Sequence record: PV660457
DNA from: Escherichia phage LF82-19
Reading direction: 5' to 3' (one strand)
Length of the DNA: 52,748 nucleotides
Shown here: positions 5,434-45,615 of the stretch, piece after piece
How positions within the stretch are numbered: position 1 is the stretch's first letter
Layout of the letters: the number at the start of each line of letters is the position of its first letter
Program-made: the position numbers and the translations under genes
The notes under the pieces: model-generated
Seen by the model: the letters and a program-made list of their open reading frames with translations, nothing else
What the model was told of the DNA's origin: nothing
Databases searched by the model: none

Positions 5434-5967
5434 ATGGCACTTATTCAAGCAAGCTACACCGTTCACCGTTCAAAGGCATACGCTGGTATGCACGCCGACA
5501 CCTCAGCTTACAACATCGACGGCACTTGCTGCGCTGGTGTTGACAAACTCCCGGTTGGCGTATTCGTCGCACTCGATCCGGCTGGCGGCGTTGTTGACGG
5601 TCACAAGGTAGTAACCAACGTTATCGACACTGCGGCAAGCAACCCTAATCTGGTTGGCGCAACTCTGATGAGCCACGCTTATTCACCTGAAGGTGTTTAC
5701 GATGAAGGTTCAGCAGTGAACGTAATGACCGCCGGGCGCATTTGGGTGCTGTGTGCTAAGTCTTTGGCTGATGCAAACAAGGCATTCAACGTTCAGGTTA
5801 ACATTAACGCAAAAGGTGAAGTTGTTAACCCTGGCTCCGGCGCAATCGGCACTGTTTACACCACCACTGGCGAATGGCTGAAGACTGACGATCCGAATTA
5901 CGACCTGATCAAGGTTCAGCTTACACAGGCTCAGTTCCAGCTTCCGGCATCCGGTGGCGGCGCGTAA
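5434..5967 (+). CDS. capsid-associated protein (decoration-like)
   Basis: 177 aa Gly/Ala/Val-rich protein immediately before the major capsid gene. Confidence 0.4.
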   Translation: MALIQASYTVHRSKAYAGMHADTSAYNIDGTCCAGVDKLPVGVFVALDPAGGVVDGHKVVTNVIDTAASNPNLVGATLMSHAYSPEGVYDEGSAVNVMTAGRIWVLCAKSLADANKAFNVQVNINAKGEVVNPGSGAIGTVYTTTGEWLKTDDPNYDLIKVQLTQAQFQLPASGGGA

Positions 5968-5974
5968 TTAAACA

Positions 5975-5997
5975 GGGAGCTTCGGCTCCCTTTTTAT
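5975..5997 (+). terminator. rho-independent terminator
   Basis: GGGAGC-ttcg-GCTCCC then TTTTTATTT. Confidence 0.55.
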
Positions 5998-6028
5998 TTA
6001 TGTCTACCACAAAAAGATATTGACCGTT

Positions 6029-6043
6029 TAGCAAAAAGTGCTA
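6029..6043. promoter_or_regulatory. palindrome TAGCAAAAAGTGCTA within major-capsid promoter region
   Basis: lies in the spacer between TTGACC (6020-6025) and TATTAT (6042-6047); followed by hairpin GCGTGA ... TCACGC. Confidence 0.45.
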
Positions 6044-6090
6044 TTATTGACGCGTGACCTAATCACGCATTCAATCAAAAGGAAAATGTT

Positions 6091-7044
6091 ATGACCATGA
6101 AACTTGATTCATTCGAGCAGAACGAAATTACGGTAGGCCTTCGCAAGATGGGTGTTGCGGCAAGCAAAGCGGATCGCCTGGGTATCTGGACTGTAGAGCA
6201 GATGAAGCAGACGCTTAAGCGTCAGTATGAAGCGGCTTATCCCGAAACATCAGCGCTGGCGCTCTTCCCGGTTACAACCGAAATTGCACCAACAACCCGC
6301 ATCTTCGAATACATGAAGATTGACGGCGTGACCATGGCGAAAATCATCGCGGATTATACTGACGATCTGCCTCTGGTTGATGCGACCCATAGCCTGGAAA
6401 CAGGCCGCGTACACCGCCTGGGTAACGCGTGGATGATTTCCATTGACGAAATCAAAACTGGTGCGGCGCTGGGTTCTTCCCTGTCTGACCGCAAGGCAAC
6501 ACTGGCGCGCGAAGCGCACGAAACGCTGGTGAATACTCTGGTGTTCCAGGGTTCCAAGCCTCACAAAATTCTGTCTGTGTTCGACAACCCGAACATCACC
6601 CGCGTAACTTCAGCGGCTGGCGCGTGGGCTGACCCTGAAAAGGCAAGCGACGAACTGACGGATCTGATTGAGAAAATGGAAACCCTGACCAAAGGCAAGC
6701 ACAAGATCACCGATATTGTGATCCCGCCTTCTCAGCGTAAGATCCTGGCTAAGCGCATGCCGGAAACCACGATGAGTTACTTGCAGTGGTTTGAGTCTCA
6801 GAACGGCGGTATCACAATTAGCTCAATCTCTGAGCTTGAAGATATCGACGGCATCGGTACCAAAGGCATTCTTGCCTACGAGAAAGACCCGATGAACATG
6901 AGCATCGAGATCCCGGAAGCATTCAACATGCTCCCAATGCAGCCTAAAGACCTGCATTTCAAAGTGCCTTGTACGTCCAAGACTACTGGCCTGATCGTTT
7001 ATCGTCCTCTGACGATTATCTTGCTGGTTGGCGTAGGTAAGTAA
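6091..7044 (+). CDS. major capsid protein
   Basis: 317 aa, strong RBS, flanked by terminators, position in head module. Confidence 0.6.
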   Translation: MTMKLDSFEQNEITVGLRKMGVAASKADRLGIWTVEQMKQTLKRQYEAAYPETSALALFPVTTEIAPTTRIFEYMKIDGVTMAKIIADYTDDLPLVDATHSLETGRVHRLGNAWMISIDEIKTGAALGSSLSDRKATLAREAHETLVNTLVFQGSKPHKILSVFDNPNITRVTSAAGAWADPEKASDELTDLIEKMETLTKGKHKITDIVIPPSQRKILAKRMPETTMSYLQWFESQNGGITISSISELEDIDGIGTKGILAYEKDPMNMSIEIPEAFNMLPMQPKDLHFKVPCTSKTTGLIVYRPLTIILLVGVGK

Positions 7045-15726: not shown

Positions 15727-18700
15727 ATGAATAAAAAAGTGTTAGTGCATGGCTCAAAGGGTGGTTCACCAAAGCCGCACACGCCACAGGAAATGGAAGA
15801 CAACTTAATTTCAATCAACAAAATTAAGGTGCTTCTGGCTATTTCTGACGGTGAGATTGATCCTGATTTCAGCCTTAAAGATCTGTATCTCAATGACGTT
15901 CCTGTGCAGTCGAAAGAAGGAACGATGAACTACGATGGCGTGATTGCCGAGTTTAGACCGGGAACGCAAACGCAATCTTACATTCAGGGTTTTACTGACA
16001 CGGCAAGCGAGGTGACTGTAAACCGAGCGCTGAAGCAAGATAACCCTTTCATCTTCCCGGTAACGAACAAAAGCATTTCAGCGGTACGCGTTAAGATCTT
16101 CATGCCTCGCGGCGTAAAGACAGAATCAAATGGAGATATGGTTGGCGTTAGGGTTGAATACGCGATTGATTTCGCGGTTGATGGTGGATCATACCAGGAG
16201 GTTCTTAAGGACGTAATCGACGGTAAGACGATGAGCGGCTACGACAGAACCAAACGGATTAACCTTCCTGAATTCAACGATCAGGTATTGGTGCGCGTGC
16301 GTCGTGTAACGATGGATTCAACAGACGCAAGATTGATTGATGAGATCAGCGTGCAATCATATGCTCAAGTTGTCGATGCTAAATTCCGTTACCCCCTGAC
16401 CGGGCTGTTATACGTTGAGCTGAACAGCGCAATGTTCCCACAAATGCCAAATATCAGCGTCAAGAAAAAATGGAAGCTGGTGAAGGTTCCGAGCAACTAC
16501 GATCCAGTAGCGCGCGAGTATCACGGCACATGGGATGGCAGTTTTAAACAGGCATGGAGCAATAACCCTGCATGGGTGCTTTACGACTTGATCACCAATC
16601 AGAGATACGGACTCGACCAGCGCGAATTAGGGATTGATGTTGATAAGTGGAGCTTGTACGAAGCCGGGCAGTATTGCGATCAGCTCGTGCCGGACGGCAA
16701 AGGCGGAACAGAACCGCGCTACCTGTGCGACGTTGTGATTCAGTCTCAGATTGAAGCGTACACGCTAGTGCGTGATATTTGCTCTATCTTCCGTGGGATG
16801 AGCTTTTGGAACGGTGAAAGCCTATCTATCGTGATTGACAGGCCGCGTGATGCGTCTTACATCTTCACGAATGATAACGTGGTGGGCGGTTCATTCTCCT
16901 ACACGTTCGCCAGTGAAAAGAGCATGTACACAACATGCAACGTGACGTTTGACGATGAGCTGAACATGTACCAGCAGGACGTTGAAGCTGTGTTTGATCT
17001 GGATGCGTCTATTCGATTCGGGCACAACCCGACAAGCATAACGGCGATCGGATGCACGCGACGGAGTGAGGCAAACCGCCGAGGGCGCTGGATTCTGAAA
17101 ACGAACTTGCGCAGCACGACAGTTAGCTTTGCTACCGGGCTTGAAGGTATGATCCCAATGGTGGGCGATGTGATTGCGGTTGCGGATAACTTCTGGCAAA
17201 GCAATCTGACGCTTTCCCTTTCCGGGCGATTGATGGAGGTTTCAGGCATTCAGTGCTTCACTCACTTCCGAGTTGATGCGCGGCCAGGTGATTTCATTAT
17301 CGTTAACAAGCCTGATGGTAAGCCAGTGCGCCGCACGATTGCTAACGTATCAGCAGACGGAAAGACCATTGAACTAAATATCGGCTTCGGCTTTGCGGTT
17401 CAGCCAAACGCGGTATTCGCGATTGACCGTCAAGATCTGGCGCTTCAGCAGTATGTTGTTACCGGAATCAGCAAGGGTGATGGAGACGAGGAGTTTACTT
17501 ACTCGATCACGGCGGTTGAGTACGACCCGAACAAGTATGACGAGATTGATTACGGCGTTAACATCGACGACAGGCCGACGAGCATCATCGACCCTGACAA
17601 CATGCAGCCGCCAGAAAATATCAGCGTTTCGTCATATTCCAGGATCGTGCAGGGCATGAGCGTTGAGACGATGGTTATCGGGTGGGATAAGGCGCAGTAC
17701 GCGAGCACATACGATGTTCAATGGCGCAAGGATAATGGTAACTGGATTAACACTCCACGCACCGCAAACACAGAGGTTGAGGTTGAAGGCATCTATGCTG
17801 GCGTTTACCACGTCCGAGTAAGATCGACTTCAGCGGCTGGTAACTCTTCGCCATGGTCAAGCGTAGTGACGGTGAGCTTAACTGGCAAGGTTGGAAAGCC
17901 AGGAGCGCCGACGAGCATCACGGCGAGCACGGATGAGGTGTTTGGTATTCGCGTTAAGTGGGGTATGCCAGCAGGATCAGAGGACACGGCCTACATCGAG
18001 CTTCACCAGTCGAAAGACGGAACGCCGGACAATGCAAGCCTGTTAACGATGATTCCTTATCCTCAGTTTGAATACTGGCACGCGGTGCTCCCGGCTGGTT
18101 ATGTGAACTGGTATCGGGCGCGAGCAGTTGACCGAATCGGCAACGTCTCTGATTGGTCTGACTTCGCACGCGGCATGGCTTCGGATGATGTGGATCAGAT
18201 TTTGGACGTTATCAAGATTGACATTGAGGACAGCGAGATTTTCAAAGAGCTTGCCGAAAATGCAGTTGATACCGCCAACAAGATCAAAGACCAGGCGCAG
18301 ACGGATATTCAGAACGCATTAGCGAATGACTACAACCTGCAATGGACTCGCAAGCAGAACGGCGCACGTAAGGCCGAATACGGTCAAGCGGTGATTCTCA
18401 TTGCCAATGAGACAGAAGCTCGTGTAGCGGCGATTGAGGAGCTTAGAGCGTCAATCAATGACGATATCATTGCTCAAATCAAAACGATTCGAGAAGCGGT
18501 AGCAAATGAGGAGGAGGCACGAGTTAAGGCGGTTCAGGAGCTTGACGCTAAGTTTGCCGGGCAGATTGGAGACTTGCAGACAGCAACAGAGGCGAGCGTA
18601 TCGCGTCTGGATGAGGCGATCGCAAATGAGTCAGAGGCAAGAACTCAGGCAATTTCACAACTCGATGCGAAGTTCCAGGGCGTCATTGATGGAGTTAAGG

Positions 18701-19278
18701 CCGACACTGAAGCCAGCATTACGCGAGTTGATAAAGCCATTGCTAGCGAGACTCAAGCCAGGGTTGAGGCAGATACAGCGCTTGGTGTTCGGGTTGGTAA
18801 CACTGAATCCGCCATCACGCAAAAGCTTGATTCATGGATTCAGAACGGGCAGCCGGGAGCGTCGTATAACGTCAAGTTGGGTATCAAGTACAACGGGCAG
18901 GAGTATAGCGCAGGGATGGGGATGCAGTTGGTTAGCGATCAGTATGGCGTTAGATCGCAAATCCTGTTTGACGCTGACCGATTCGCAGTTGGCAAGATTG
19001 AGAATGGCTCTATTCGTCAGTTGCCGTTTGTGATTGAGGGTAATCAGGTATTCATTCGTGATGCGCTGATTAAAAACGGCTCCATCACTAACGCAATGAT
19101 CGGAAACGTCATTCAGTCAAACAACTATGTTGCTGGTTGGGCTGGTTGGAGAATGGACAAGAACGGAAACCTTGAGATTAACGGCAGCGCCGGAAACGGA
19201 AGGCTGACCATTAACAACAACATCATTGCCGTATATGATGGTAACGGTGTGTTAAGAGTTCGAATGGGATTGTTCTAA
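15727..19278 (+). CDS. tail tip / host specificity protein (lambda J-like)
   Basis: 1183 aa after I-like gene; fibronectin-like middle region and C-terminal coiled repeats. Confidence 0.85.
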   Translation: MNKKVLVHGSKGGSPKPHTPQEMEDNLISINKIKVLLAISDGEIDPDFSLKDLYLNDVPVQSKEGTMNYDGVIAEFRPGTQTQSYIQGFTDTASEVTVNRALKQDNPFIFPVTNKSISAVRVKIFMPRGVKTESNGDMVGVRVEYAIDFAVDGGSYQEVLKDVIDGKTMSGYDRTKRINLPEFNDQVLVRVRRVTMDSTDARLIDEISVQSYAQVVDAKFRYPLTGLLYVELNSAMFPQMPNISVKKKWKLVKVPSNYDPVAREYHGTWDGSFKQAWSNNPAWVLYDLITNQRYGLDQRELGIDVDKWSLYEAGQYCDQLVPDGKGGTEPRYLCDVVIQSQIEAYTLVRDICSIFRGMSFWNGESLSIVIDRPRDASYIFTNDNVVGGSFSYTFASEKSMYTTCNVTFDDELNMYQQDVEAVFDLDASIRFGHNPTSITAIGCTRRSEANRRGRWILKTNLRSTTVSFATGLEGMIPMVGDVIAVADNFWQSNLTLSLSGRLMEVSGIQCFTHFRVDARPGDFIIVNKPDGKPVRRTIANVSADGKTIELNIGFGFAVQPNAVFAIDRQDLALQQYVVTGISKGDGDEEFTYSITAVEYDPNKYDEIDYGVNIDDRPTSIIDPDNMQPPENISVSSYSRIVQGMSVETMVIGWDKAQYASTYDVQWRKDNGNWINTPRTANTEVEVEGIYAGVYHVRVRSTSAAGNSSPWSSVVTVSLTGKVGKPGAPTSITASTDEVFGIRVKWGMPAGSEDTAYIELHQSKDGTPDNASLLTMIPYPQFEYWHAVLPAGYVNWYRARAVDRIGNVSDWSDFARGMASDDVDQILDVIKIDIEDSEIFKELAENAVDTANKIKDQAQTDIQNALANDYNLQWTRKQNGARKAEYGQAVILIANETEARVAAIEELRASINDDIIAQIKTIREAVANEEEARVKAVQELDAKFAGQIGDLQTATEASVSRLDEAIANESEARTQAISQLDAKFQGVIDGVKADTEASITRVDKAIASETQARVEADTALGVRVGNTESAITQKLDSWIQNGQPGASYNVKLGIKYNGQEYSAGMGMQLVSDQYGVRSQILFDADRFAVGKIENGSIRQLPFVIEGNQVFIRDALIKNGSITNAMIGNVIQSNNYVAGWAGWRMDKNGNLEINGSAGNGRLTINNNIIAVYDGNGVLRVRMGLF

Positions 19279-19283
19279 TAGAA

Positions 19284-19312
19284 AAGGGAGCCTTGCGGCT
19301 CCCTCTTTTTTT
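19284..19312. terminator. bidirectional terminator between convergent J and minus-strand genes
   Basis: GGGAGCC-ttgc-GGCTCCC flanked by T-run on + and A-run (T on minus). Confidence 0.55.
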
Positions 19313-19643
19313 ACATCACTTTATTGTAGATAACCGGGCTTCGGCTGGTTTGCTGGGTAATCATGTCAAGCTTGTATTCAGCGCCGCGATTCCACTCGAA
19401 GCGTAGCGTATAAGTGTTTACGTCGCCGTAGCACATTACGTGTTTGAACTTGCGCAGGTGCTTATCAAATATCACGTTTGTGCTTTCTTCAATATTCACC
19501 GTCCGATCCTGGCAGTTTACAACCGCCACGGTTGAGCCAGTAAGAGACATTCTGGAAGCGTCAACCGGATATCCGATATTAACGTTCAAAGCCATAGCGT
19601 TTAAAGGAGCTAAGAGAGCCATAGCGAGCATGATTTTTTCCAT
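19311..19643 (-). CDS. secreted small protein (signal peptide)
   Basis: start at MEKIM (RBS GAGGAA 7 nt upstream); N-terminus MLAMALLAPLNAMA looks like a signal peptidase I substrate; track ORF to 19688 is an extension. Confidence 0.45.
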   Translation of the reverse strand: MEKIMLAMALLAPLNAMALNVNIGYPVDASRMSLTGSTVAVVNCQDRTVNIEESTNVIFDKHLRKFKHVMCYGDVNTYTLRFEWNRGAEYKLDMITQQTSRSPVIYNKVM

Positions 19644-19717: not shown

Positions 19718-20368
19718 TTAGTTCCACCCAAGGAATCGAGCCATTGGAATCTTTAGGTTTCCGCGACCGTTGAAAATATCATTAAACCCTCGCTGATTTC
19801 GTCTGATCCATGTAGTCTGCAACTCCGAGCCAGTCCAGCGCATGAGGTTGCCAGAGTAACCAGAGGCAACGCCATCCGTTGACATTTCACCCATGCAGGA
19901 CTCCCACAGAAAGAATGGGTTGTAACCAGGTGATACGCTGGCAACGTTACCCTCAAGAGGCCAATTCCCGGCAACCTCAAGGAAGCCAGTTACACGAGGC
20001 ATTGAGGCAGCGCCCAAAGCAGACCAGATCAGTTGCCCGGAACCGTCGAACACGTCAAGCACGCCAGATGGAAAGTTTGCGTTTCTGGTTGTCCTGATCA
20101 CGCGGATTGAGTTTGGTAGGAACATATCAGATCCCGGAAACCCCCACGCGCCGTTAGAAAGAAATTGCACCCAATGCAAATATCCGTCTTGCTTCCTCGT
20201 GTTTTGGTTTAGGTAAGCCAGTGAGCTTATGTTGCCAAAAGGTGTGTTTAGGTTGTAGTCACCAGTATTTAAATATGACGGGTTGAAAGATGAGTGGTAG
20301 ATCGTGTGTTTCTGATCTGAGTTAATCATCATCGCCCCGGCGTTATTGTATACCTCAAAACCAGGCAT
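19718..20368 (-). CDS. hypothetical protein (MPG-paralog, long)
   Basis: 216 aa; shares MPG(F/L) N-terminus and (F/W)DGSG(Q/N)LI motif with the upstream 99-aa ORF. Confidence 0.45.
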   Translation of the reverse strand: MPGFEVYNNAGAMMINSDQKHTIYHSSFNPSYLNTGDYNLNTPFGNISSLAYLNQNTRKQDGYLHWVQFLSNGAWGFPGSDMFLPNSIRVIRTTRNANFPSGVLDVFDGSGQLIWSALGAASMPRVTGFLEVAGNWPLEGNVASVSPGYNPFFLWESCMGEMSTDGVASGYSGNLMRWTGSELQTTWIRRNQRGFNDIFNGRGNLKIPMARFLGWN

Positions 20369-20377
20369 ATTGCCCCC

Positions 20378-20677
20378 TCAGTTAAATTTGTAAATTTCGA
20401 TATCCATCGTCACATCGTTAAACGGGTTGCTTGTTGGTAGGTAGATAACATCAACAGCATTCTCACGCGTTACGCAAGCGTAAGCACTCCCTATGTAGAT
20501 GTTTGCGTATTTGATGCAAGCAAACGAGTTGTAACCGTTTATTCCGACAACAGCAAAAGACACGATCGAAGTCGAGCGCGGGAACACGATTTGCTGACGA
20601 TGCACAAAGCGAGTGCTGAAATCTCCGAGATCCACAATCAGATTTCCCGACCCATCCCATGCTTGTAAACCAGGCAT
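20378..20677 (-). CDS. hypothetical protein (MPG-paralog, short)
   Basis: 99 aa; RBS GAGGTGG; paralog of 19718-20368. Confidence 0.45.
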   Translation of the reverse strand: MPGLQAWDGSGNLIVDLGDFSTRFVHRQQIVFPRSTSIVSFAVVGINGYNSFACIKYANIYIGSAYACVTRENAVDVIYLPTSNPFNDVTMDIEIYKFN

Positions 20678-21176: not shown

Positions 21177-22232
21177 ATGAATCCAACAAGACCTGAATCA
21201 GATTTTTTCTGGTTCACCAGCGATAAAATGCCGAACGATTTTTACCACGACAAAGAGGCATGGACTTTTGATTTCGTATCAGGCTCCAGCCTTTGCGACA
21301 TTCACCAATCGTCACCCGCTTCATGGTTCTTCGCCAAAAACGAGATCACAAAGGCGCTTGAGTTTGGTACTCAGTCACACACCAACTTTGAATCGAAGTC
21401 GCTGTTTGATGCAACGTATCGACGCGCACCAGCCCCGGAAGACTTCGAAAACTTGATTACGTCTCAGGCAGCGCTGGCTACGAAGTTGAAATCATTCGGC
21501 CTGACTGGTACAAGCGGGAAGCAATATCCAGAGCTGATCAAAATGATGGTTGATTGCGGTGAAGATCTTAACGTGTTGTGGCTTATTGATATGATCGCAC
21601 AGTGCCAGGCTTGGGCTGATGGCGTTGAGTTGGTCAAGGCTGAGGATTACGACAAGTGCAAGATGATGCGCGCCGTTCTGGAATCAGTGCCGGAATACGC
21701 AATGATGATGGAAAGCCCAACGGCAATGCACGAGCTTTCATTGTTCGGAAAGATCAGCGGCGTTGACGTAAAAGTCAGACTTGACTACGTTGACACGGTT
21801 ACTGATCCAAACCTCATTCGTCATTTTGGGTACGATCCAGAGCTACACCCTGAAATCATTGTGATTATGGACTACAAAACGACGAGCAGCGCCAACCCGG
21901 CAGATTTTGACCGAAAGGCATTCGATCTTGGGTATTATCTGAAGATGGCATTGCAGCGTGATTTATTCGTCAAAGTGTACGATGAGAAGCGCCCCGTTTG
22001 CTTGGTTCTGCTTACACAGGAAAAGAAAGAGCCATTCTTGCCACTTGGAAGGCCAATGACGCGCGAGCAGCTTCTTTTAGGCCGCAAGCAGTATATGGGT
22101 GTCATTCACACTTACTCGATCTGCAAGGAATCAAACGTTTGGCCTGGCTATGCAAACGGCGCTCCTTTCGTTAGCCTTGAAACGCCTGACTACATCAAGC
22201 GCCAGCATAAGGATATTTTCGGCGGAGAGTAA
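21177..22232 (+). CDS. PD-(D/E)xK-type exonuclease (putative recombination exonuclease)
   Basis: ATG 21177 with RBS GAGGAA; D ... IMDYKTT motif resembles D-(D/E)xK; adjacent to annealase and SSB. Confidence 0.45.
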   Translation: MNPTRPESDFFWFTSDKMPNDFYHDKEAWTFDFVSGSSLCDIHQSSPASWFFAKNEITKALEFGTQSHTNFESKSLFDATYRRAPAPEDFENLITSQAALATKLKSFGLTGTSGKQYPELIKMMVDCGEDLNVLWLIDMIAQCQAWADGVELVKAEDYDKCKMMRAVLESVPEYAMMMESPTAMHELSLFGKISGVDVKVRLDYVDTVTDPNLIRHFGYDPELHPEIIVIMDYKTTSSANPADFDRKAFDLGYYLKMALQRDLFVKVYDEKRPVCLVLLTQEKKEPFLPLGRPMTREQLLLGRKQYMGVIHTYSICKESNVWPGYANGAPFVSLETPDYIKRQHKDIFGGE

Positions 22233-33363: not shown

Positions 33364-33582
33364 ATGAGGGAAGTAATCAATGCAGTAACCAGCGCCACAG
33401 GCGGCGCGTCACTAACCGGAGCGGCTACAGGTCAGTTAGTTATTGCTGGCGCAACGTTCGTGCTATTCGTTGGCTTCGGTGTTTGGGGTGCTTACTGGAA
33501 ATACCAGGACAGCAAAGCAATTCGTGAAGCCCTCAAATCCGGCAATCTGGAAGAGGCGATCAAACTAAACGGGAAAAAGTAA
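33364..33582 (+). CDS. holin (putative)
   Basis: 72 aa with Gly/Ala-rich TM segments and charged C-terminus; immediately upstream of endolysin. Confidence 0.5.
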
Positions 33583-33583
33583 C

Positions 33584-34069
33584 ATGAAGAGATTAGTAGC
33601 CGGGGCTGCATTCGGTGCAGCTCTCGCCTTAACGCCTCCCCTGGTGGAGCAGGTTGAAGGCATTCATTACGATCCATACAAAGACATTGCCGGGATCTGG
33701 ACGGTGTGCGCTGGCATTACCGGGAGCGATGTAGTGCTAGGGAAGCGATATACTCAGCGCGAGTGCGATGCGTTGCTTTTCAAGCATATCGAGATCGCAA
33801 GGAAGGAAGTTGACAAGCGCGTAAACTATCCGATCCCGGACACGATGCGCGCAGCAATGTACAGCTTCACGTTTAACGCTGGCACTGGCGCTTTTCGTGG
33901 CTCTACAATGCTGAAGCTTATCAATCAGGGCAAGTTGCCTGAGGCATGTAATCAGCTTTGGAGCTGGACTTACTACACCAACCCGAAGACCGGGAAAAAA
34001 GAGAAGTCGAAGGGGTTGAAGAACCGCCGCGCCTTTGAATACAACTACTGCATGAAGGAATTAAAATGA
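33584..34069 (+). CDS. endolysin, lysozyme-like with SAR-type N-terminus
   Basis: E-x8-D-x5-T catalytic triad spacing ([16 protein letters not shown]); N-terminal Gly/Ala-rich weakly hydrophobic segment. Confidence 0.75.
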
Positions 34070-34497
34070 AACGCGTAAGCAACTCAATGCTGATCTTCGT
34101 AACCATCCTCGTGTTCGTTGCAGTGACTTCGCTATCTGGTTGCTCAACGGCTGGCGCTCTGACTGGTTTGATCGGCAGCAAGCCGGAAATCTCAGCACAG
34201 GCCGGAGCGGAAAACACGAAACAGACGGTTGGCCTAAACAACAAAGTGGATCAGTCAAGCGAGGTGGAAACCACGATTCGTGATTCAAAGGTTGGAAAGG
34301 TTGACAGCTCTAACGGAAAGAAGACCAGCGCATCAAGCATCACGGCTGAAACCATCAAGGCCGACAAGATCGAGATTCGCAATAGTGATGGAGAGGCGTT
34401 TGGTATTGCGGCTGGTTTCTTCGTCGCTGGTCTGATTGCAGGTTCAAGCGCCGTTGCATACTTAGCAACGAGACGCAGAAACAACAAAGGAGCCTAA
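34066..34497 (+). CDS. unimolecular spanin (lipoprotein with C-terminal TM domain)
   Basis: lipobox LSGC after signal sequence plus C-terminal hydrophobic helix; same architecture as T1 gp11. Confidence 0.65.
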
Positions 34498-42872: not shown

Positions 42873-43088
42873 ATGGAAACTGTAACAATCGGCGCTAAGC
42901 CGCCATCATTTGACAACTTCCCGTCGCAATTCGTTGAGGATGAATACGGTGACGAAACAGAGGTGTCTTTAATTCACTCGTCAGGCAACAAGTCTGTACT
43001 CATGGAAAGCGGCAACATGATTTTCACGCCAGATCAGGCGCGCGAACTGGCTGCGGCTCTCATCAAGGCGGCTGAGGTGTGCGAATGA
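42873..43088 (+). CDS. hypothetical protein
   Basis: start METVT; track extension from 42780 covers the promoter. Confidence 0.4.
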   Translation: METVTIGAKPPSFDNFPSQFVEDEYGDETEVSLIHSSGNKSVLMESGNMIFTPDQARELAAALIKAAEVCE

Positions 43089-43294
43089 AGTTCAAAACTA
43101 CATACGTATCACCGCGCGCTCGCGTTGCATTCAACCTGCGCAAGGGTATGACATACGACGCTGAGAAGATTGGCAATCAGATTTCGGTGCGCGTGCCTAT
43201 CGGTAGGCTCATCATCAAGCTCCAGGGAGAGAGGTTCATGAGTCGCTCAATGACGGGCGAATTACTCGCGGCATGGGAGGAAGTGAAAAAATGA
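43085..43294 (+). CDS. hypothetical protein
   Basis: ATG overlapping previous stop (ATGA). Confidence 0.4.
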   Translation: MKFKTTYVSPRARVAFNLRKGMTYDAEKIGNQISVRVPIGRLIIKLQGERFMSRSMTGELLAAWEEVKK

Positions 43295-43599
43295 TGATTT
43301 TGAATGACCGAGAGGAGCTACAGGAAGCCGTGAGACTGGCGCTAAAATCAGACGTGCCATTTATCGAAGTTGTGCTTTGCGTGGCTGCCAGCCTCGATGT
43401 ACGGCCCCGTGTGGCTGCTTTCATGGTTCACTCTAACACCTTCGATATGGCTGGCACATTCCAGGGTGATAAATTCCTTGAATTCTTGATGCAGCTAACC
43501 GATAAGTTCGAAGCCATGCATCCTGACCGGATAAGCGCCAGTGGGCAGATCCTGATCGAGGAGTTCACCAACTTTGTGATTCGCGGTACATGGCGATAG
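43291..43599 (+). CDS. hypothetical protein
   Basis: ATGATG start overlapping previous stop. Confidence 0.45.
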   Translation: MMILNDREELQEAVRLALKSDVPFIEVVLCVAASLDVRPRVAAFMVHSNTFDMAGTFQGDKFLEFLMQLTDKFEAMHPDRISASGQILIEEFTNFVIRGTWR

Positions 43600-43639
43600 C
43601 ACTTTTTGTTAAACGTGTGCCGGGCTAATCCGGCATACT
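43597..43639 (+). promoter_or_regulatory. palindrome TAGCA-N5-TGTTA plus hairpin with CATACT
   Basis: TAG stop is the first half-site; hairpin TGCCGG ... CCGGCA; 22-nt gap. Confidence 0.5.
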
Positions 43640-43669
43640 GTCACCACACCAACCAATCAAGAAGTCAAC

Positions 43670-43948
43670 ATGAAGACGTTAAAAGAGATTTTGGCAGAAA
43701 TTGACGAGGCTGCGCTCAAGGATAATGACGACGAGGCCACAACAAGCAAGAAGATCCTGACTTGCGGAGCCACTCACATTGCGCAAGATGCAGACGGCGC
43801 AGTATTCGCATTCAGGGGTAAGCCAACCGCCACGAAAATTGAGGATATGACGGAGTGGTTTAGCGGCGAAAAAGGTGAAGTGCTGTTATTCTGCGCAGAC
43901 CTGGAAAAGCCAGAAGATTGGACGCAGTGCATTTGGGAGCTGCCATAA
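43670..43948 (+). CDS. hypothetical acidic protein
   Basis: 92 aa. Confidence 0.45.
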   Translation: MKTLKEILAEIDEAALKDNDDEATTSKKILTCGATHIAQDADGAVFAFRGKPTATKIEDMTEWFSGEKGEVLLFCADLEKPEDWTQCIWELP

Positions 43949-44268
43949 TGAAAAAGTTTGTCGGATCGTGTTTGCTGGTTTCTGTCCTGGCGCTGGCGTT
44001 CATCGCTCTCGCAGGGTGTGACGACTCAACCCGCGTGCCTCGTGAGCAGCGTAGCAAGGTGCGGGTCACAACGGCTGAATCCGGGCGCGTGCAGGTGCGC
44101 AAGATCAGCGAATTCCGTGACGACCTGGCTTATGACAGCTATCGAGGCGTGTACATCATCACGGACACTGAAACCGGGCAGGAGTTCATAGGCGTTAGCG
44201 GTGTTGGTATCAGTGCTATCGGGCAACACAATTGCGGCAAAAACTGCTGGAAGAAAGATGAGAGATAG
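43948..44268 (+). CDS. lipoprotein (early-expressed)
   Basis: MKKFVGSCLLVSVLALAFIALAGC: signal peptide with lipobox LAGC. Confidence 0.55.
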   Translation: MKKFVGSCLLVSVLALAFIALAGCDDSTRVPREQRSKVRVTTAESGRVQVRKISEFRDDLAYDSYRGVYIITDTETGQEFIGVSGVGISAIGQHNCGKNCWKKDER

Positions 44269-44308
44269 CACTTTTTGTTAAAACTGCCCGGAGCGATTCG
44301 GGCATAAT
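44266..44308 (+). promoter_or_regulatory. palindrome TAGCA-N5-TGTTA plus hairpin with CATAAT
   Basis: hairpin GCCCG ... CGGGC; 22-nt gap. Confidence 0.5.
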
Positions 44309-44337
44309 GATTTCACACCAAACGAGAGGAAGTGAAA

Positions 44338-44952
44338 ATGTTTAAATTAGTTCGCGGCGTAACAACTCCAAATGACATTCTTATCCATGTTGCATCCGGC
44401 GCACGCTATGACGTTCCTGACAACACCAAACAGGTTGCAGTAGATCAGGATGGAGAAATATACGCCTATGAATCCGGCATGGCTAAAGTAGAGCACGGGC
44501 ACACCGGATGGAGTGATAACGGATATGATGGTTTTGTCAAGTGCATCGGTAAGATTCCGAGCGATCAGGAAAACATGCCGAAAGGTGTATTCCCTGGATG
44601 GCTGGACTCATTGACAAGCATCGACGCGCTTAAGCTTTCGCCGGAATACGCCCCGCTAGGCAGTAAGAAAAAGATTGAGATCGCAACACCCGTTCGCATT
44701 GGCGGCTCACAACTCCGCGCTCGTGTCACGGAATATCTTGACCGCAAGATGAAGGATAACGTTGTCGGATCTGTTCGGGCGCGCCACTTCCTTTCTGACA
44801 TTCGAAGCGAGGGCTTCACGTTCGAGAACTACCGCACAGCCGATCTCGTCCTGGCTCTGGTTACTATCGGGTGCGATCTCAAGCTGGCTCGTGACTATGC
44901 AGCATTCCGCGCCATTGATGATGCGGTTCACTTTGTGCGAGGTGAGGCATGA
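44338..44952 (+). CDS. hypothetical protein
   Basis: 204 aa; ATG 44338 preferred over GTG 44332. Confidence 0.5.
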   Translation: MFKLVRGVTTPNDILIHVASGARYDVPDNTKQVAVDQDGEIYAYESGMAKVEHGHTGWSDNGYDGFVKCIGKIPSDQENMPKGVFPGWLDSLTSIDALKLSPEYAPLGSKKKIEIATPVRIGGSQLRARVTEYLDRKMKDNVVGSVRARHFLSDIRSEGFTFENYRTADLVLALVTIGCDLKLARDYAAFRAIDDAVHFVRGEA

Positions 44953-45080
44953 ACCTAACAACTCTTGAGGCGATCATTGTCGCTACCGCTGGCTTACTCG
45001 TTGCTGGCATCATCATTGAGCAAATTGCCTATACCTGGTTGCAGATTGTTAAGCGCCGGAAGGAGAAAGGTGATGATTAA
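44949..45080 (+). CDS. small membrane peptide (43 aa)
   Basis: MNLTTLEAIIVATAGLLVAGIII ... single TM helix; overlapped by a second 34-aa TM ORF at 45073-45177. Confidence 0.3.
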   Translation: MNLTTLEAIIVATAGLLVAGIIIEQIAYTWLQIVKRRKEKGDD

Positions 45081-45174
45081 TGCAATCGGCGCGGCATGTC
45101 TTCTTGCTTCCGTCACTGTGGTTGCGGTTGGCGCTGTTTGGCTAATGGCAAAAATATTGCGTGAGATTGACGAA

Positions 45175-45217
45175 TAGCACGAATTGCTAAAACGGCATGG
45201 CTCCTGAGTGGTATCAT
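45175..45217 (+). promoter_or_regulatory. palindrome TAGCA-N5-TGCTA plus hairpin with TATCAT
   Basis: hairpin ACGGCATG ... CATGCCGT; 22-nt gap. Confidence 0.5.
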
Positions 45218-45249
45218 GCCGTTACACCAAACAAACAGGAGTCACCCAA

Positions 45250-45615
45250 ATGAAAGTTAAATGCATTAGTTCAGACGTTTTGCTTGATGGTTACTACACC
45301 CCAGGTAGAGTCTACCGATTAAGGCGAGAAAGGGGCAAAAGCTATAGAACCGTTAAATCAAACAGAGGCGTTGATCTTGGTGTTATCCACGACCCATTAA
45401 AAAGAGGTCGGTTTTTCGTTGCTGGATTTGAACGTTGTGTGTTTGATTCGGCTCCGCACCGATTCGTGAAGCGCAACCAAAGCGCCGCGCTGGGGCAGAT
45501 TGAGATCGACTATACGCGATGCAAGCGCAGCATTCGCAATCAGGCTCGCAACATCGCAAAAGAGCACTTCTCGTGCGGCAAGCTTGAGAAGATTGCGCGA
45601 GGCTATAAGCGATAG
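45250..45615 (+). CDS. small basic protein, MKVKC family member
   Basis: MKVKCI ... YYTPGRVY; Arg/Lys-rich. Confidence 0.5.
   Translation: MKVKCISSDVLLDGYYTPGRVYRLRRERGKSYRTVKSNRGVDLGVIHDPLKRGRFFVAGFERCVFDSAPHRFVKRNQSAALGQIEIDYTRCKRSIRNQARNIAKEHFSCGKLEKIARGYKR

Follow-up and report, generated by a model that had tools for sequence, protein, structure and literature searches.

The gene at 43948..44268 of Escherichia phage LF82-19 (sequence record PV660457) was found to encode a small lipoprotein that represents a large, conserved and unstudied family predicted to act at the inner membrane; the 52,748-nucleotide stretch of this record is referred to here, at its full length, as the window. The topology predicted for the protein and the distribution of its relatives suggest a biological role in superinfection exclusion (Sie) after adsorption, at the periplasm or inner membrane, to which we assign a probability of about 35 to 40%. 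The positions of the gene, its predicted parts and other features of the window are collected in Table 1.

A predicted lipoprotein gene

The N terminus of the product, MKKFVGSCLLVSVLALAFIALAGC, was examined by a PROSITE-type lipoprotein rule (K/R in the n-region, a hydrophobic h-region and a lipobox [LVI][ASTVI][GAS]C with the Cys at position 15-35) and found to conform, with a K/R n-region, a 13-residue h-region and LAGC ending in Cys24. When the rule was run on all possible starts in the six frames of the whole window, the real genes that passed were two in number: the open reading frame (ORF) in question and the spanin gene of the lysis cassette (LSGC followed by ST). The remaining six matches were short ORFs of 45 to 97 amino acids (aa) with no annotated counterpart, most of them antisense to real genes. 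With only two real genes passing, the lipobox of this ORF is therefore not one that arose by chance. Cys24 was invariant in an alignment of 28 members and 97% conserved over about 175 family sequences; Cys8 lies too near the N terminus and is not conserved. The identical region of phage LF82-10 has an annotated coding sequence (CDS) for the same ORF, XUQ13401.1, named "hypothetical protein." Thus, the textbook lipoprotein signal with LAGC that was read in the initial annotation is borne out by the rule, by Cys24 conservation and by the annotated CDS, and the ORF is almost certainly a real lipoprotein gene. The mature length of about 82 aa given at the time was close to the 83 aa obtained when the Cys is counted, and lipid modification of this residue is predicted. 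The start codon and the TAA of the ORF at 43670..43948 have one A in common (TAATG), an overlap by which the two ORFs are probably translationally coupled.

A large family with an invariant core

The lipoprotein was found to match phrog_16585 (E-value 1.3e-10, residues 15-100) and phrog_11767 (E-value 1.9e-5), the catalogued forms of the family. These entries carry no functional annotation, and the sorting signal, anchor alternation, tether, invariant core and genomic contexts described below are not recorded in them; a Pfam search with the lipoprotein gave no match. A word-indexed search for relatives returned 28 clusters, and an exhaustive profile search returned 474 representatives of clusters at 50% identity with E-values <= 1e-3 (334 at <= 1e-10), setting the family size at 474 or more such clusters. 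Nearly all representatives are 90-125 aa long, and members are named in public records solely as "hypothetical protein" or, automatically, as "Lipoprotein." The hosts include Proteobacteria, Planctomycetes, Verrucomicrobia, Bdellovibrionales and Ignavibacteria; all identified hosts are diderm, save for one metagenome-assembled genome labelled "uncultured archaeon."

A canonical lipobox was present in 136 of 150 family representatives (about 91%). Several members have instead a plain N-terminal transmembrane (TM) helix without the lipobox Cys, and the rest have near-canonical boxes or are truncated calls. The signal peptides are variable across the family and the mature part is conserved, also among close relatives; the mature domain remains about 45 to 50% identical between phages that differ in morphology and host phylum. 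After the anchor comes a tether rich in Pro, Ser, Ala and Glu, with a median length of 23 residues (interquartile range 21-26). It leads into a core of about 60 residues in which the conservation tables revealed about 20 near-invariant polar or Gly positions: R47, D58, A61, Y62, R66, Y69, D73, T76, G77, G82, S84, G85, G87, H94, G97, K98 and the D104-E105-R106 triplet, with D-E-R forming the absolute C terminus of nearly all members. The C96/C100 pair (CxxxC) is a subfamily trait, found in 19 of 147 representatives. The AlphaFold2 (AF2) model of the lipoprotein is of moderate confidence outside the core. Fused domains were considered for the longer homologs and rejected, the extensions being over-called starts or extra TM segments.

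The family profile had no match among all PDB chains, and the predicted fold gave no informative match either; hence no binding partner could be derived for the β domain. NCBIfam returned only sub-threshold matches over the signal peptide (LptM, TrbK and YgdI/YgdR). With PADLOC, four divergent members were found to match the same part of the UzuA (Uzume defense) profiles at E-values of 8e-5 to 9e-3. The similarity is short and weak, covering a β-hairpin of about 25 aa (Y..RG.Y.I.D..TG.E) that falls within residues ~51-83 of the window protein, and a literature search on UzuA found nothing usable. It may reflect a shared structural motif or chance, and we treat it as a weak lead.

A conserved signal for predicted retention at the inner membrane

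In E. coli, the Lol-avoidance signal of lipoproteins is an Asp at position +2 with suitable residues at +3. The cavity of LolCDE carries a negative charge, and entry is barred by an acidic or hydrophilic residue at +2/+3 (PMC9595528). The window protein has Asp-Asp at these positions, and Asp was found at +2 in every enterobacterial member of the family, including all 30 from lysis cassettes, and in all T1-like members. Among the enteric members the Cys-Asp pair occurs as CDD, CDN, CDS, CDG, CDR, CDA and CDT, behind signal peptides that are otherwise unrelated in sequence. By contrast, the +2 residue is G, S, T, N, A or V in the o-spanins of the same cassettes and Ser in the unimolecular spanin (u-spanin) of the window, and T1 Cor has Ser-Ser at +2/+3. 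For the homologs anchored by a TM helix, the cytoplasmic membrane is the only possible place. Based on (i) the conserved +2 Asp, (ii) the contrast with the spanins and Cor, (iii) the TM-anchored homologs and (iv) the conserved tether length, we predict that the lipoprotein very likely resides at the inner membrane, with its β domain facing the periplasm a short distance above the membrane.

Comparison with Cor and Llp

The initial annotation had placed the ORF among candidate superinfection-exclusion or receptor-masking factors, with Cor and Llp as precedents and a comparison with their sequences as a means of checking. Cor (T1, phi80 and N15) and Llp (T5 and BF23) are likewise small phage lipoproteins made during lytic growth of E. 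coli siphophages and encoded by non-structural accessory genes. The comparison was run, and the lipoprotein was found to be neither Cor nor Llp. A single pairwise BLASTP comparison with T1 Cor (MKKLITIIAAAFILTGC followed by Ser-Ser) gave an E-value of 0.12 for an alignment confined almost wholly to the signal peptide; PHROGs and Pfam yielded no family of the Sie, Cor or Llp kind at E-values <= 1; and the family profile matched none of the PDB chains including the Llp structure, PDB 8A60 (PMC13164509). The predicted fold is not Llp-like. Cor and Llp act at the outer membrane and their genes adjoin receptor-binding or tail genes, whereas the lipoprotein of the window is predicted at the inner membrane, has Asp-Asp at +2/+3 and a tether of about 22 residues, and is encoded at a different genomic position. 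It is not adjacent to a receptor-binding or central tail fiber locus, as Cor and Llp genes are. As had been noted from the start, the gene does not occupy the canonical post-tail position: it lies about 24 kb from the J-like tail gene, outside the site of T1 cor.

It follows that masking of the phage's own receptor from the periplasmic side of the outer membrane, as Cor (T1, phi80, N15) and Llp (T5) do with FhuA, is a highly improbable function for the lipoprotein. The idea draws on the precedent of Cor and Llp (PMC13164509) and on the occurrence of a small lipoprotein in a virulent T1-like phage that has no recognizable cor at the canonical position. The predicted inner-membrane location is the main reason to doubt it, given a Lol-avoidance signal where T1 Cor has Ser-Ser. 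In addition, the lipoprotein resembles neither Cor nor Llp in sequence, profile or fold and lacks the non-Asp +2 residue of outer-membrane sorting, and the domain identity maintained across morphologies and host phyla is at odds with binding to a single, variable outer-membrane receptor. Of the suggestion that the gene might be a distinct exclusion factor, the exclusion part stands, in that some exclusion role is the single most likely function, and the outer-membrane mechanism falls.

No Cor gene was found elsewhere in the window. The three minus-strand ORFs past the J-like tail gene, the first of which is a 110-aa ORF at the site equivalent to T1 cor, have no similarity to Cor and belong to PHROGs of unknown function. 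They could be the receptor-binding or exclusion locus of the phage.

Relationship to other membrane-associated systems

HK97 gp15, which has an N-terminal TM helix, and T4 Imm and Sp are Sie proteins of the cytoplasmic membrane that block DNA entry. An inner-membrane tether, either a lipid or a TM helix, joined to a small domain on the outer face is the architecture of injection-blocking Sie proteins (PMC3952083). Ltp of Streptococcus thermophilus phage TP-J34 (a lipoprotein), lactococcal Sie2009 (with an N-terminal TM helix) and the P22 inner-membrane exclusion protein SieA have a topology like the one predicted here (PMC3952083; PMC10883804). The lipobox, the +2 Asp and the TM-anchored homologs all predict this small outer-face domain on a lipid or TM anchor. 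The genes of the Ltp/gp15/SieA class are likewise accessory genes of sporadic distribution. However, proteins of that class are mostly expressed from prophages and target fast-evolving tape-measure or ejection proteins, whereas the present family is far more conserved and is found in virulent phages and late prophage operons. No homology to a characterized DNA-entry Sie protein was detected in Sie-annotated PHROGs, Pfam or PDB chains.

The spanins (the o-spanin Rz1 and the u-spanins of the T1 gp11 type) are lipoproteins of phages as well, and one clade has the family gene beside Rz/Rz1. Spanins are outer-membrane lipoproteins needed to disrupt the outer membrane, and are either short, Pro-rich and paired with an i-spanin or equipped with a C-terminal TM domain; in the lipoprotein studied here, no C-terminal TM domain and no match to a spanin PHROG were found, and its sorting signal is of the inner-membrane type. 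TrbK of the IncP plasmid RP4 (TIGR04359), a small lipoprotein reported to reside in the cytoplasmic membrane and to block incoming DNA, offers a functional analogue for an inner-membrane lipoprotein that excludes DNA. Its sole similarity to the family is the sub-threshold match over the signal peptide of one member (E-value 0.046), and TrbK is a plasmid protein whereas the family is essentially absent from plasmids (a single record). Since the homology and fold comparisons all failed, the lipoprotein falls outside the Cor, Llp, Ltp, gp15 and SieA families.

Genomic contexts of the gene and its relatives

The gene order of the window was found to be that of phage T1, identifying the source as a T1-like phage: terminase through to the J-like tail protein; recE, erf and ssb; lateral tail fiber, primase and helicases; then dam, followed by holin, endolysin and u-spanin. 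The lipoprotein ORF sits in a rightward block of small ORFs, also containing polynucleotide kinase and deoxynucleoside monophosphate kinase, that begins past a divergent AT-rich intergenic region (~41.4-42.1 kb), runs into the terminase genes and corresponds to the T1 "left arm" (genes 77-55). The early operon of the initial annotation is this co-oriented block; early timing is plausible and a reasonable inference for it, and transcription-timing data for T1-like phages were not found in the literature. The lysis cassette of the window ends at 34497, far ahead of the lipoprotein gene, confirming that the gene lies outside it. From 43000 to 45500 the window is 100% identical to Escherichia phages LF82-10, LF82-11, LF82-12 and LF82-40, which are soil isolates on E. 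coli LF82. The window and LF82-10 (PV660453.1) are not identical overall, with the first difference at 21225 and a coordinate offset of 147 bp by ~34 kb; LF82-10 is 52,895 bp long and LF82-11, LF82-12 and LF82-40 are 52,979 bp.

The family is rare among cultured phages (29-31 of 50,697 records), occurs in a minority of Drexlerviridae and is absent from T1. Its contexts were surveyed at 16 loci from species-representative genomes and 67 from IMG/VR, a census that used narrow search patterns, so that its counts are lower bounds, and that rests on crude ORF calling with families assigned to same-strand neighbors. The T1-like left-arm context was shared by the window, NBD2, PHB17, W011D and the BASEL phage PaulSarasin/Bas09 (bas09_0066). 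The predominant setting is an early or middle block of small ORFs, in phage types unrelated to one another. Other members were located (i) in the nin region of lambdoid phages, flanked by replication genes and NinG/Q (Hafnia Pocitis76 and Enterobacter MII_001); (ii) in a T4-like early region past gp45/44/62/regA; and (iii) beside Dam and other methylases, primase or HNH genes, or in blocks of small ORFs. Jumbo phages with a family gene include BcepSauron/Saruman and Serratia 2050HW. In a prophage of Alysiella crassa (loci L009/L057), the gene lies at ~5938..6231 between the large terminase (TerL) and portal genes, a further site of insertion in a late operon that is separate from the lysis cassette. 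A conserved coupled partner was sought and rejected, as the ORF preceding the gene in the window bears no relation to those at this position in Changchunvirus phages. In W011D, the 83-aa ORF directly upstream of the family gene (L002:2253-2504) is annotated as "putative apolipoprotein N-acyltransferase," a label that is implausible at this length and probably a mis-annotation; this ORF is unrelated to the upstream ORF of the window. Overall, the family behaves as a mobile accessory gene riding in the lytic-cycle operons of many phage types, and its product is part of neither the virion nor the core lysis machinery.

Homologs within lysis cassettes

Although the gene of the window lies apart from the lysis genes, the contrast with lysis cassettes that had been drawn for it fails at the level of the family. 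At 30 of 78 loci, all belonging to one enterobacterial prophage clade, the same-strand upstream neighbor was an endolysin, of the GH24/Phage_lysozyme type in 22 and of the GH19 type in 8; since these endolysin families are unrelated, the same slot has been filled in two non-homologous cassette types. The downstream neighbor in the cassettes was an Rz-type i-spanin (PF03245 in 17; phrog_13 in 23, phrog_214 in 14 and phrog_1026 in 6). The family start overlaps or abuts the endolysin stop, and the downstream gene is usually overlapped by 4 nucleotides (nt) (ATGA). Examples are found in Enterobacter (locus L007) and in E. coli MRSN346595 (locus L089), the latter with the order holin-holin-GH19-X-Rz-Rz1, where X is the family gene. 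The clade comprises at least 8 signal-peptide variants and is abundant in prophages of Klebsiella and Enterobacteriaceae (hundreds of contigs); in complete E. coli genomes it was detected in 10 of 5,426, a lower bound given that blastn was run with a 78%-identical Enterobacter gene. A crude scan revealed no promoter-like site directly upstream of the prophage copies in either cassette type. Coupled to lysis genes and with no such site of their own, these copies appear to be late.

These loci raise the alternative that the protein, at the periplasmic face of the inner membrane, assists or tunes lysis, by way of peptidoglycan or its synthesis, lipid-linked precursors, the membrane-tethered endolysin, a spanin or the holin, and that in T1-like phages the gene is merely encoded apart from the cassette. 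A domain as strongly conserved as this one would suit a ligand that is found universally, for instance peptidoglycan or lipid II. The endolysin of the window, moreover, has a Gly/Ala-rich N terminus resembling a signal-arrest-release (SAR) sequence, as in T1, which fits the scheme of T1-type lysis, where a pinholin and u-spanin accompany an SAR endolysin itself tethered to the inner membrane (PMC13164509). The GH24 endolysins beside family genes are also SAR-like, with one soluble exception. Nonetheless, the cassette site is limited to one enterobacterial prophage clade, and the other, independent contexts are the early/middle block, the nin region and the TerL-portal junction; because the 30 cassette loci are phylogenetically related, they represent perhaps two independent events. 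The lipoprotein is not a missing core lysis component, given that the cassettes already contain holin, endolysin, i-spanin and o-spanin in full and that a u-spanin is encoded in the window. The sporadic distribution among T1-like phages also weighs against a role in lysis, as does the danger that cells would lyse too soon if a factor promoting lysis were expressed early. In lambdoid phages, moreover, accessory genes of unrelated kinds are also found at the junction of endolysin and Rz. We thus consider an accessory function in lysis unlikely. Two narrower versions were tried and rejected: a partner specific for SAR endolysins does not serve as a general explanation, as the 8 GH19 endolysins and one of the GH24 family adjoining family genes are soluble; and a substitute o-spanin is discounted, as o-spanins are retained in the cassettes and a u-spanin is present in the window.

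Proposed post-adsorption exclusion and the question of a host target

In the explanation that we favor, processing by Sec, Lgt and LspA would yield the mature lipoprotein, and the Asp-Asp signal would prevent its hand-over to LolCDE, so that it stays in the inner membrane, anchored in the outer leaflet. The tether would then hold the small five-stranded β domain just above the membrane in the periplasm. With expression as part of lytic-cycle operons, the β domain would most likely bind, on the periplasmic side of the inner membrane, an envelope component that is conserved among diderms. The most likely benefit would be an infected cell shielded from further phage after adsorption, at the periplasm or at the step of DNA entry through the inner membrane. 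Periplasmic binding and exclusion are what we infer as the most likely functions. Exclusion is ranked first because the tethered topology matches that of Sie proteins and because a sporadic distribution among early/middle small ORFs is typical of exclusion and takeover genes. Several points weigh against it. Known Sie proteins directed against phage ejection or tape-measure proteins are fast-evolving and narrow-range; the strong conservation of this family between phage types and between host phyla speaks for a target in the host that is itself conserved rather than a fast-evolving phage protein, and with a host target the downstream benefit to the phage could differ from exclusion. For an exclusion gene in a temperate phage, the late, coupled position between endolysin and Rz is strange in both timing and location. 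Retention at the inner membrane is a rule-based prediction modulated by the +3 residue, which is R, S, A or T in several prophage members, and the non-enteric members mostly have Gly at +2, in hosts for which no sorting rule is established.

The same conservation opens the way to a takeover of the host envelope or to counter-defense, in which the domain would inhibit or hijack a conserved inner-membrane or periplasmic machine or sensor of diderm bacteria, to a benefit that is neither classical exclusion nor lysis. Candidates are the Ton/Tol energizers, LolCDE, Lpt, peptidoglycan synthases, envelope-stress sensors or a membrane-associated abortive-infection effector. The extreme conservation of the polar and Gly positions across five host groups favors a host target over a phage-specific one; the host range described above is almost exclusively diderm; the early/middle small-ORF setting is where host-takeover and anti-defense genes cluster; and the short tether of fixed length suits a target at the membrane surface. 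The local UzuA similarity, consistent among the four divergent members, points in the same direction, although it is short and weak and the literature offers no usable account of UzuA. However, no fold match that would point to a partner was obtained, and the category is broad and overlaps the others, as a host target could still give exclusion or aid lysis. We therefore regard takeover or counter-defense as possible but doubtful. A bolder reading, which we hold to be speculative and rather unlikely, is that the family constitutes an unrecognized class of phage envelope effector: a lipoprotein retained at the inner membrane whose invariant β domain would bind a universal diderm component (candidates being lipid-linked cell wall or lipopolysaccharide precursors, LolCDE, Lpt and the Ton/Tol machines), and which, in Klebsiella/Enterobacter prophages, would have been recruited into the lysis cassette as a fourth component next to holin, endolysin and spanin. 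The same effector would then be used by T1-like, T4-like, jumbo and lambdoid phages. Post-adsorption exclusion remains our preferred explanation for the lipoprotein.

Features of the window and flanking sequences

Table 1. Location of the lipoprotein gene, its predicted parts and other features discussed in the text (positions are those of the window)
Feature	Position	Strand	Remarks
CDS, 106-aa prolipoprotein	43948..44268	+	ATG at 43948, TAG at 44266-44268
Shine-Dalgarno GGGAG	43935..43939	+	8 nt 5′ of the ATG; direct sequence reading
Signal peptide, residues 1-23	43948..44016	+	n-region MKK, h-region LLVSVLALAFIAL; signal peptidase II cleavage predicted
Lipobox L21-A22-G23-C24	44008..44019	+	Cys24 is the predicted lipid-modified residue 1 of the mature protein
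Sorting signal Asp25-Asp26 (+2/+3)	44020..44025	+	Predicted Lol-avoidance, inner-membrane retention signal
Tether, residues 25-46	44020..44085	+	Poorly conserved linker; AF2 pLDDT (predicted local distance difference test) 56-66, low confidence
Conserved β domain, residues 47-106	44086..44265	+	Five antiparallel strands, predicted periplasmic; AF2 core pLDDT ~90
J-like tail gene	15727..19278		
110-aa ORF at T1-cor-equivalent site	19311..19643	-	Ordinary Sec signal peptide (MEKIMLAMALLAPLNAMA followed by LN), not a lipoprotein; phrog_25729
Further ORF	19718..20368	-	Unknown PHROG 4524
Further ORF	20378..20677	-	Unknown PHROG 7961
Holin	33364..33582	+	
Endolysin	33584..34069	+	SAR-like N terminus
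u-spanin	34066..34497		phrog_1804
Upstream ORF	43670..43948	+	Match to phrog_1972
Stem-loop	44285..44304	+	8-bp stem, GCGA tetraloop
Downstream ORF	44338..44952	+	Match to phrog_1972

Past the lipoprotein gene, 17 nt from its stop codon, a stem-loop of the form UGCCCGGA-GCGA-UUCGGGCA was observed. It has no U-tract and is not called a terminator; the surrounding 74 nt fold with a z-score of -2.2 relative to shuffled sequences, and the element could be an intercistronic RNA stabilizer or processing site. The two ORFs flanking the lipoprotein gene both match phrog_1972, of unknown function, over a short D.DG..[YF]A[YF] stretch, and may be a pair of paralogous small domains. A phrog_1972 gene is also the downstream neighbor at 3 further family loci.

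Significance of the family

To our knowledge, the phage lipoproteins of Gram-negative hosts that have a known function all have their site of action at the outer membrane, where they serve as receptor masks (Cor and Llp) or as spanins. Taken alone, the gene of the window is an ordinary "hypothetical"; what is new is the picture of the family, with its wide spread, invariant core, inner-membrane signal and recruitment to lysis cassettes. For annotation, the lesson is that a small phage lipoprotein is not by that token Cor- or Llp-like, and a tempting mislabel is corrected here. The family gene is also carried by phages of the clinical-type strain LF82. The conservation of the domain implies a conserved target in the envelope, possibly a step by which phage DNA enters or one of the envelope machines (Lol, Lpt, Ton/Tol or cell wall synthesis, for example), and such a target would be of interest as a point of vulnerability.

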